Assembly (NCBI RefSeq): GCF_024502345.1
Contig: NZ_JALDNN010000001.1
Source: Escherichia coli
Lineage (GTDB): Bacteria; Pseudomonadota; Gammaproteobacteria; Enterobacterales; Enterobacteriaceae
DNA length: 64,000 bases
Reading direction: 5' to 3' (one strand)
In this document: positions 62,392 to 64,000 of the stretch, piece by piece
Position numbering within the stretch: the first letter of the stretch is position 1
Layout: the number at the start of each line of letters is the position of its first letter
The notes under the pieces: model-generated
Seen by the model: only the letters and a program-made list of their open reading frames with translations
What the model was told of the DNA's origin: nothing
Database searches by the model: none
Translations under genes and position numbers: made by a program

Positions 62392-62469
62392 ATGGAATTA
62401 GTTAATACATTATTTGCAAGCCTTGCCGGTACTGATCCCTTCACAGGCGTGGATATTACGATTGCCAAC
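62392..62469 (+). pseudogene. 5' fragment (26 codons) of a gene of unknown function interrupted by an IS903-type insertion
   Basis: ATG 16 bp after the upstream stop; MELVNTLFASLAGTDPFTGVDITIAN runs straight into the IS left end; same frame resumes after the element. Confidence 0.5.
62461..62469. repeat. Target-site duplication, left copy (ATTGCCAAC)
   Basis: Identical 9-mer flanks both IS ends. Confidence 0.85.
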
Positions 62470-63526
62470 GGCTTTGTTGAATAAATCAGATTTCGGGTAA
62501 GTCTCCCCCGTAGCGGGTTGTGTTTTCAGGCAATACGCACGCTTTCAGGCATACCTGCTTTCGTCATTTTGTTCAGCGCTCGTACCAGGGCCATAGCCTC
62601 TGCAACCTGACCATCGTAGTCACGCAGTGTCAGTGAACCCCCGAACAGCTGTTTTACCCGGTACATCGCCGTTTCCGCTATCGAGCGACGGTTGTAATCT
62701 GTTGTCCATTTCCACCGCGCATTACTCCCGGTCATTCGCTGATTAGCCACTGCACGGTTACGGTCTGCATATTCACCGGGCCAGTAACCCGCACCTTTTC
62801 GGGGAGGGATAAGCGCGCTGATTTTCTTACGCCGCAGTTCATCGTGACATAGCCGGGTATCGTAAGCGCCATCGGCGGCGGCTGACCTGATTTTCCGGTG
62901 GGTTTGCCGGATTAACCCGGGGAAGGCCTCTGAGTCCGTAACGTTGTTCAGCGACAGGTCAGCGCAGATGATTTCATGTGTTTTACTGTCAACGGCGAGA
63001 TGCAGCTTACGCCAGATACGGCGGCGTTCCTGGCCATGCTTTTTGACTTTCCACTCGCCTTCACCGAAGACCTTCAGCCCGGTGGAATCAATTACCAGGT
63101 GTGCGATTTCACCCCGGGTGGGCGTTTTGAAACTGACATTAACCGACTTTGCCCGCCTGCTGACACAGCTGTAATCCGGGCAGCGTAGCGGAACGTTCAT
63201 CAGAGAAAAAATGGAATCAATAAAGCCCTGCGCAGCGCGCAGGGTCAGCCTGAATACGCGTTTAATGACCAGCACAGTCGTGATGGCAAGGTCAGAATAG
63301 CGCTGAGGTCTGCCTCGTGAAGAAGGTGTTGCTGACTCATACCAGGCCTGAATAGCTTCATCATCCAGCCAGAAAGTTATGGAGCCACGGTTGATGAGGG
63401 CTTTATTGTAGGTGGGCCAGTTGGTGATTTTGAACTTTTGCTTTGCCACGGAACGGTCTGCGTTGTCGGGAAGATACGTGATCTGATCCTTCAACTCAGC
63501 AAAAGTTCGATTTATTCAACAAAGCC
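62470..63526 (-). mobile_element. IS903-type insertion sequence (IS5 family), 1057 bp, with perfect 18-bp terminal inverted repeats
   Basis: Left end GGCTTTGTTGAATAAATC (62470-62487) and right end GATTTATTCAACAAAGCC (63509-63526) are exact reverse complements; single transposase ORF; 9-bp direct repeats flank it. Confidence 0.9.
62526..63449 (-). CDS. IS903-type DDE transposase
   Basis: Track ORF 62526..63494 (322 aa); probable true start is the GTG at 63449 giving 307 aa (VAKQKFKITNWPTYNKALINRGS...); fills the element. Confidence 0.8.
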   Translation of the reverse strand: MAKQKFKITNWPTYNKALINRGSITFWLDDEAIQAWYESATPSSRGRPQRYSDLAITTVLVIKRVFRLTLRAAQGFIDSIFSLMNVPLRCPDYSCVSRRAKSVNVSFKTPTRGEIAHLVIDSTGLKVFGEGEWKVKKHGQERRRIWRKLHLAVDSKTHEIICADLSLNNVTDSEAFPGLIRQTHRKIRSAAADGAYDTRLCHDELRRKKISALIPPRKGAGYWPGEYADRNRAVANQRMTGSNARWKWTTDYNRRSIAETAMYRVKQLFGGSLTLRDYDGQVAEAMALVRALNKMTKAGMPESVRIA

Positions 63527-63535
63527 ATTGCCAAC
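63527..63535. repeat. Target-site duplication, right copy (ATTGCCAAC)
   Basis: Identical 9-mer flanks both IS ends. Confidence 0.85.
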
Positions 63536-64000
63536 TGCAAATCGGCATACTGGGATGAAGGCATTGTTCAGCAACTTATTAACCAGGCCCTGGATGAAGG
63601 GGAAAAGTTCGTCGGTGCTGACGGTCTTGAGGGATTGCTTCGATATGATGTCACATTAAATATTGGCTTAACCTCCAGCAAGGTATGGCCGGGATTTTCC
63701 CTCGATACCGCCACCATTAGCCGTCTTTGTGCCTGTGGTGCTGATTTTGGATTTGACCCCTATATCAGTGATGTACCAGATGTTCAATGTGACCTGAACA
63801 CGACAAATGACGTCACCGTACAATTTACGGCGATGCTAAATCCGGATGAGCGGGTGATAATAGCAAAGCGCCCGCTTAAAAAATGTGACTCCTGGATTGA
63901 GGATGTCTATATCTTTCAGGTCTTAAAAGATGCCTGGAAATTTCATAACAATAACAGTTTACGCGGATTTCGCGATAAGCAGGCCGAACTGAAACTCTAC
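63527..64000 (+). pseudogene. 3' continuation of the IS-interrupted gene (open to the window end)
   Basis: Frame continuing from the duplicated codons IAN: CKSAYWDEGIVQQLINQALDEGEKFVGADGLEG..., no stop before the window end. Confidence 0.45.

Follow-up and report, generated by a model that had tools for sequence, protein, structure and literature searches.

An insertion sequence (IS) near the end of a 64,000-nucleotide stretch of Escherichia coli DNA (NCBI RefSeq assembly GCF_024502345.1, contig NZ_JALDNN010000001.1; hereafter the window) divides a gene that lies just downstream of one for a PstS-like protein. The locus raises the question of what this gene encodes, and of what the strain may have lost with it. 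A preliminary description of the window had proposed that an element flanked by a 9-bp repeat interrupts a single open reading frame (ORF), the product of which it did not recognise. Database and hidden Markov model (HMM) searches with the reconstructed ORF now place that product as a tandem, DUF4279-like protein of immunity type. The gene is the second of an islet, normally of four genes, between glgP and glpD and is termed gene 2 here. Where gene 2 is uninterrupted, as in E. coli O121 RM8352 (L001; 99.8% identical to the window at gene 2) and PEC209 (L002), the islet reads: glgP; gene 1, PstS-like, 505 aa; gene 2, 236 aa; gene 3, for a 255-aa protein; gene 4, for a 201-aa membrane protein; and the convergent glpD.

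The inserted element and the interrupted gene

The element lies at 62470-63526 on the minus strand. Its inverted repeats and its near-identity to annotated copies identify it as an IS903B-like insertion sequence (IS5 family, IS903 group) of 1057 bp. The inverted repeats, GGCTTTGTTGAATAAATC, are 18 bp long and perfect, and were located by script at 62470-62487 and 63509-63526; these two IS termini are the only matches to the repeat in the window, where 0.02 would be expected by chance. Two copies of a 9-bp target-site duplication, ATTGCCAAC, also located by script, flank the element at 62461-62469 on the left and 63527-63535 on the right, as the preliminary description had reported. The transposase ORF (62526-63494, minus strand; 322 codons from a TTG start) contains DDE domains, with Pfam matches to DDE_Tnp_1_5 (E 3.4e-40) and DDE_Tnp_1 (E 6.6e-33). 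Identity to copies that bear the label 'IS5-like element IS903B family transposase' is 98-99.8%. The length of ~1.06 kb, the 18-bp inverted repeats, the 9-bp target duplication and the DDE transposase that mark the IS903 group are all present, and nothing notable sets the window copy apart from IS903B. The target was codon 26/27 of an accessory gene of 236 codons, where transposition of an IS903B copy generated the usual 9-bp duplication. The event itself is a routine knock-out by a common IS. None of 5426 complete E. coli genomes carries the IS at the same site, and in that set the insertion site is unique.

The two parts of the gene can be rejoined without difficulty. Codons 1-26 occupy 62392-62469 (plus strand), in a frame identical to that of the intact 236-codon coding sequence (CDS) in L001 and L002. 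Codons 27-181 of 236 occupy 63536-64000 (plus strand) and run off the window; this distal part comprises what remains of an N-terminal, DUF4279-like domain plus the opening half of a second domain, and is matched by the profiles of both. Joining the two parts by script yields 543 nt, or 181 codons, with zero stops and open to the window end. The restored translation starts MELVNTLFASLAGTDPFTGVDITIANCKSAYWDEG, in agreement with the one first given. In 2337 of the 5426 complete E. coli genomes, the restored sequence has an annotated counterpart at 92-99.8% identity, an uninterrupted CDS of 711 bp (236 aa), at one site per genome and always on the chromosome. The reconstruction therefore represents a real gene rather than a chance ORF. 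The preliminary description had also considered that the ORF might already be broken in relatives, which is not so: each of the nine E. coli copies sampled is an intact CDS of 236 codons, none of them flagged as a pseudogene, and six loci of other lineages are likewise intact.

In its present state, the interrupted gene encodes a 30-residue peptide, MELVNTLFASLAGTDPFTGVDITIANGFVE, followed by a stop. The distal frame is open from 63482 and offers three in-frame starts before the window end: TTG at codon 60, ATG at codon 126 and GTG at codon 133. Because the first in-frame starts after the IS fall as late as TTG codon 60 and ATG codon 126, no functional product is expected from the gene.

Domains and relatives of the gene 2 protein

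Standard domain libraries say little about the intact protein. Pfam, NCBIfam and PADLOC returned nothing significant, with no Pfam match at E<=1, and phmmer, run exhaustively against 1.84 billion representatives, returned 41 matches only. Besides orthologs, residues 7-103 match stand-alone proteins of ~100 aa that end in GAS(F/L)DFDPYV, together with the C-terminal halves of some ~220-aa proteins. In the whole-library search, the phmmer E-values against two such proteins (P0049 and P0051) are 4e-12 to 6e-11; matches to single-domain relatives among the fetched loci reach E-values of about 1e-16 to 1e-18.

These relatives lead to a described family. Searching with a profile of the N-terminal domain family (A2) brings up proteins of ~100 aa from Salmonella, Citrobacter and E. 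coli, many of which have precomputed matches to PF14106 (DUF4279). For DUF4279 a ferredoxin-like fold has been described, and the family has been classed computationally as FdL-Imm5, an immunity family of polymorphic toxin systems (PMC9424270). Of 26 members of the family studied here, nine show DUF4279 matches below threshold (12.6-18.4 bits, gathering score 25), and any other family turns up in two at most. The N-terminal domain of the gene 2 protein is homologous to the ~100-aa proteins, many of them PF14106 matches, and the C-terminal motif RP.F.L...I.RL..AGA.FDFDPY is kept in its first domain and recognisable in its second. With the predicted strand and helix order, no solved ferredoxin-like immunity structure was retrieved, and no PDB match to the profile of the N-terminal domain family was better than E 0.42.

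Where DUF4279 proteins have one domain, the gene 2 protein has two. Within the protein, BLASTP aligns residues 73-105 with residues 199-231. An hhalign comparison of the N-terminal domain family with the C-terminal halves gives a probability of 97.6% (E 3.1e-12) over the whole domain of ~100 residues. The AlphaFold2 model (predicted local distance difference test score, pLDDT, 88.4; predicted template modelling score, pTM, 0.87) contains the order beta-beta-alpha-beta-(beta)-alpha-beta twice, in residues 1-104 and 119-228. On these sequence and model comparisons, the protein is a tandem duplication, with two diverged copies of a domain of ~100 residues. The 236-aa tandem form is one difference from DUF4279 proteins, and the setting is another: gene 2 has no adjacent toxin, follows a PstS-like gene and belongs to a chromosomal islet flanked by glycogen and glycerol genes.

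Existing labels are of limited help. For the same 236-aa protein, RefSeq gives 'hypothetical protein', 'YbbD family protein' or 'membrane protein', depending on the genome (L042 is one of those compared). The 'membrane protein' label, given to one copy, is unsupported, since hydropathy predicts no membrane segment in the gene 2 protein. Deaminase zinc motifs are absent as well. A relationship to YbbD, implied by the RefSeq/PGAP label, was rejected: tblastn and both domain profiles find nothing in the rhsD-ybbC-ylbH-ybbD region of K-12. What the gene 2 protein shares with the YbbD family is the label and a weak N-terminal match to NCBIfam NF007301 (residues 7-49; 25 bits, cut-off 373).

In complete or long assemblies, a gap of ~3-5 bp separates the single-domain relatives from a preceding Rhs gene of 1351-1375 aa, placing them in the canonical position of an Rhs immunity gene. 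Citrobacter-type loci carry VgrG, an Rhs protein of 1351 aa and then the relative P0069; a Salmonella locus carries Hcp, VgrG, an Rhs protein of 1375 aa and then P0075; and in one E. coli locus P0073 follows a toxin end of 129 aa, frameshifted, from a 1259-aa Rhs gene. These three Rhs C-termini are mutually related, and Ntox33 is the sole Pfam match in the toxin-domain region of all three, at 17-20 bits against a threshold of 28.4. One of them has, in addition, a chance-level match to DUF7533 (E 0.43; an N-terminal hydrophobic stretch). Two of the three (L010, L014) contain DxHxxK and DxxxD, which are motifs of the Ntox33 family (PMC3482391).

A custom HMM of the toxin domain matches directly upstream of a homolog in 15 fetched loci, some of the matches being orphan toxin fragments, and these loci include Burkholderia pseudomultivorans, Stenotrophomonas, Lysobacter, Zoogloeaceae and Gallionellaceae. 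The metagenomic contigs that encode single-domain proteins (P0051, P0052, P0063) are 0.6-1.5 kb, which is short for context; one of them, L007, carries an Ntox33-like fragment upstream. As published support for such a pairing, a PAAR-RhsA-Ntox33 effector of Salmonella pathogenicity island 19 (SPI-19) has been paired computationally with a putative DUF4279 immunity protein (PMC13304343).

A candidate immunity gene with no toxin in cis

Gene 2 itself stands apart from any such toxin. The 64-kb window contains no Rhs gene and no Rhs-sized ORF, and the toxin HMM had no match in the window or in any locus of the glgP-glpD islet. As no Ntox33-like toxin is found in either, gene 2 is an orphan. The place of a cognate RhsI gene, directly after the toxin region of an Rhs gene, is held by the single-domain relatives and not by gene 2. 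Orphan immunity genes are kept by bacteria without their toxin, including in Rhs/CDI orphan modules and in type VI secretion system (T6SS) immunity islands. Orphan Rhs modules have also been described (PMC3150448, PMC3967940). Gene 2 resembles orphan immunity genes in several respects: it belongs to an immunity family; it lacks a cognate toxin in cis; it occupies a variable hot spot; its distribution in the species is patchy; and it is under purifying selection where present. It also departs from them. Classical Rhs orphans keep a fragment of the toxin C-terminus before the immunity gene, whereas gene 2 has no detectable toxin remnant; its locus lies outside any Rhs/T6SS region; and protection by gene 2 is something that we infer.

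The reading we favour is that the gene 2 product may be an orphan immunity-type factor against incoming Ntox33-type Rhs toxins, and that the window strain may have lost this protection through the IS. Judged from sequence relationships, we regard this as about evenly poised between right and wrong. Under this proposal, the protein would reside in the cytoplasm, where it would bind and neutralise Ntox33-type domains injected by the T6SS of competitors (such as Citrobacter, Salmonella and rare E. coli). Either half of the protein could provide a surface for binding. The insertion would abolish protection in the window strain, and expression of the two downstream islet genes is probably lowered as well, since the IS interrupts the transcript; any such polar effect falls past position 64000.

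A number of observations weigh against this proposal. The gene 2 protein has no PF14106 match, and its relatives stay under the gathering score of that model (25 bits). Its N-terminal domain is 35-43% identical to the toxin-linked relatives, and because immunity proteins are usually specific for their toxin, identity at this level leaves cross-protection uncertain. The Rhs-Ntox33-like module with a single-domain immunity gene occurs in 2 of the 5426 complete E. coli genomes, with 2014C-3075 and SCU-301 as carriers, and gene 2 in 43%; with the module so rare in the species and gene 2 so common, selection would need to come from other species or from another toxin. In at least four lineages gene 2 follows a PstS-like gene with a membrane anchor, a placement that is not predicted for a free-standing orphan immunity gene. 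Finally, the islet is lost, truncated or hit by other IS elements in many E. coli lineages, so any benefit it brings must be conditional.

What the analysis adds is a first functional lead, in that an inconsistently annotated gene of ~43% of complete E. coli genomes can be placed as a tandem, toxin-less relative of an immunity family. If protection is true, the presence, absence or IS disruption of the islet would be a strain-level determinant of gut survival against Citrobacter, Salmonella and E. coli attackers. Variants of the glgP-glpD hot spot could then be read as gain or loss of interbacterial defence.

Variation, selection and neighbours in the glgP-glpD islet

The islet is found in many structural forms. 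A 2026 typing paper designates the glgP-glpD spot 'hotspot A' and describes seven structural types with no function assigned (PMC13185298); in the literature on yzgL, the 'YbbD family' or glgP/glpD, this structural paper was all that was found, and no functional study. At least 80% of the islet is present in 2432 complete E. coli genomes. The preliminary description had called the unit absent from K-12, and most of it is; a deletion there has spared 235 bp at the start of the PstS-like gene, which are annotated yzgL. In BL21 and O157:H7, only the PstS-like gene remains and gene 2 is missing. In 25POL-type strains (L032), a fimbrial operon replaces the PstS-like gene and genes 2-4 are kept; in E2348/69 (L033), gene 2 is deleted and genes 3-4 are retained intact. 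Other E. coli strains carry independent IS1 or IS3 insertions within the islet. In O121 RM8352 the PstS-like gene is frameshifted (L001 4478-5985) and gene 2 is intact, the reverse of the window.

Erosion has also left traces outside the species. In Pseudocitrobacter and Escherichia sp. MOD1-EC7003, gene 2 is followed downstream by short remnants of gene 3 (L003 8695-8967, L025 7638-7910, L024 7615-7914), spanning residues 1-21, 31-59 and 234-247, or 1-51. Their persistence indicates that two- and three-gene islets are eroded forms of the four-gene islet. In the Pseudocitrobacter islet gene 2 is kept, gene 3 survives as these remnants only, and gene 4 is absent.

Such losses raise the alternative that gene 2 is a decaying, functionless relic of a former Rhs/T6SS locus, with the IS a further step of neutral erosion. 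The high polymorphism of the islet agrees with this view, from PstS-only forms and the 235-bp K-12 stub to gene 2 deletions and IS1/IS3 insertions, as do the seven structural types of hotspot A, the numerous truncated protein clusters, the gene 3 remnants in Pseudocitrobacter and the presence of relatives of both core islet genes inside Rhs arrays. Where gene 2 is intact, however, it is under purifying selection. Pairwise ratios of nonsynonymous to synonymous substitution (dN/dS) among copies from Escherichia, Pseudocitrobacter, Klebsiella spallanzanii and another relative are 0.07-0.28 (for example, 0.105 at dS 0.41), close to that of the PstS-like gene or lower. These ratios hold over saturating synonymous divergence, and the nine compared copies, from several genera, are stop-free. 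The homologs in MOD1-EC7003, Pseudocitrobacter, K. spallanzanii and other relatives contain no internal stops. Even in L032, where the PstS-like gene is missing, gene 2 is intact and constrained (omega 0.12-0.27). With the nine intact sampled E. coli copies and a confidently folded model also speaking for a maintained protein, we consider a relic decidedly unlikely.

The gene upstream of gene 2 suggests another explanation. Gene 1, at 60859-62376 (plus strand), is intact in the window and encodes a PstS-like protein of 505 aa, RefSeq homologs of which are annotated as starting 9 nt further in. A hydropathy scan places several membrane segments between residues 10 and 203, ahead of a C-terminal phosphate-binding-protein domain. 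In the L002 homolog, residues 250-485 match Pfam PBP_like_2 at 105 bits (cut-off 27), and the PstS subfamily model TIGR02136 scores 120.8 bits, below its cut-off of 206.6. An R-x-x-x-S-G-S stretch, noted by eye, resembles the phosphate-binding motif. The PBP_like_2 domain, above its Pfam threshold, links the protein to PstS, the periplasmic phosphate-binding component of the Pst ATP-binding cassette (ABC) transporter. In contrast to PstS, the domain is fused to an N-terminal multi-pass membrane domain and falls below the TIGR02136 cut-off, and pstCAB is not nearby, the neighbours being glgP and the islet genes.

The gene 2 protein could be read as the cytoplasmic partner of this membrane-anchored protein, in a two-component sensing or transport module that has recruited an immunity-type fold. 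A periplasmic oxyanion would be bound, the signal would pass through the tandem-domain protein, and the IS would disable the output of the module. The arrangement of the two genes is in keeping with this. Gene 2 begins 15 bp after gene 1 and no terminator-like site lies between them, which also leaves standing the co-transcription that the preliminary description had suggested from their tight spacing. The order PstS-like gene, gene 2 beside glpD is kept in Escherichia, Pseudocitrobacter (L023, L025, L003), K. spallanzanii (L022) and the organism of L038, and the spacing is 15-30 bp, or a called overlap, even where genes 3-4 have decayed. Purifying selection acts on both genes, and gene 2 has no toxin beside it.

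Natural variants nevertheless take the pair apart. Gene 2 is intact and constrained in the E. coli lineages where a fimbrial operon stands instead of the PstS-like gene, BL21 and O157:H7 have the PstS-like gene but no gene 2, and O121 RM8352, the closest strain, combines a frameshifted PstS-like gene with an intact gene 2; since each keeps one only, genes 1 and 2 are separable. The L038 organism carries a second gene 2 paralog away from the PstS-like gene, and Pfam, NCBIfam and PADLOC reveal no known signalling domain. A partnership of this kind is, in our view, unlikely. The same variants bear on the two-gene unit that had first been proposed: the norm in E. coli is four packed genes, although the PstS-like gene and gene 2 recur as a pair in other genera. 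Nor is the whole unit inactivated in the window, as had been supposed, since gene 2 alone is destroyed and the upstream gene retains its 505 codons. Given that gene 2 persists, constrained, without the PstS-like gene and that genes 3-4 persist without gene 2, the islet genes behave as independent units. This fits separate protective or immunity-type genes better than subunits of one complex.

The tight packing of the islet, with genes 3 and 4 each following a 3-bp gap, raises the further idea that gene 2 is the antidote to an islet-encoded toxin, gene 3 or gene 4, in a self-contained toxin-antitoxin or addiction cassette. The immunity-type fold of gene 2 would suit such a role, hydropathy makes gene 4 a small multi-pass membrane protein, and gene 3 is found elsewhere as a tandem paralog pair. 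Against this, E2348/69-type strains keep genes 3 and 4 intact without gene 2, and Pseudocitrobacter keeps gene 2 with only remnants of gene 3 and no gene 4. Moreover, in Pfam, NCBIfam and PADLOC genes 3 and 4 resemble no toxin family, and the predicted structure of gene 3 is a generic all-alpha repeat. We regard an addiction cassette as highly improbable. PADLOC likewise gives no anti-phage defence match for any of the four islet genes.

A last reading joins the two core genes in one role. The PstS-like protein and the tandem immunity-fold protein might form an undescribed module: either a chromosomal, cognate-toxin-free defence against Rhs/T6SS effectors, in which, say, a sensor in the envelope might be linked to a cytoplasmic toxin-binding protein of broad specificity, or an immunity fold that was domesticated and now serves phosphate-linked signalling. 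We consider this a long shot. Some room for a shared role in interbacterial conflict comes from the fact that single-domain immunity genes and a PstS-like lipoprotein 64% identical to the islet domain both occur inside Rhs arrays.

The lipoprotein in question is encoded in E. coli EC42405 (NZ_CP043414, L037 8332-9300). It is a PstS-family protein of 322 aa with the lipobox LMSGC, the 64% identity being to the periplasmic domain of the islet protein. Its gene sits between an Rhs/148-aa immunity pair and a PAAR-Rhs gene, behind Hcp-VgrG, in a T6SS locus, an arrangement found in 1 of the 5426 complete E. coli genomes. In an equivalent place, a Salmonella contig (L018 12672-13031) holds a 95-residue C-terminal fragment 71% identical to the PstS-like protein. 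These loci suggest that PstS-like periplasmic domains are in some way connected with Rhs loci. One possibility, a speculative one, would be that the islet descends from an Rhs locus, which would explain the placement of gene 2 after the PstS-like gene; such shared descent is suggested by the relatives that both core islet genes have in Rhs loci.

A further form of the islet is that of an enterobacterium, L038 (6450-14127; also L039 and L004). It contains the PstS-like gene, a gene 2 paralog (39% identical), a gene for an 899-aa superfamily 1 (SF1) helicase, a gene 2 ortholog (54% identical), gene 3, gene 4 and a gene for a 142-aa secreted repeat protein. The helicase, which lies between the two gene 2 copies, has a DUF2726 domain and matches MkoA in PADLOC (E 3e-44), making it Mokosh-like. 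The glgP-glpD spot gathers conflict-related and other accessory genes.

Several smaller observations concern the individual genes. The PstS-like gene (0.47) and gene 2 (0.45) have a lower G+C content than glgP (0.51) and the window as a whole (0.52), consistent with an accessory origin. A resemblance of gene 4 to the membrane domain of gene 1, suggested by eye (GFALGYY and SFSLGYG), was rejected as evidence of paralogy at a BLASTP E-value of 1.1. In another enterobacterium (L035 7001-8586), two tandem gene 3 paralogs, 40% and 52% identical, occupy a different chromosomal context without the PstS-like gene or gene 2. Among the structural forms sampled (L032, L033 and strain 48956, L034), the islet may also hold a second, shorter gene of the PstS family.

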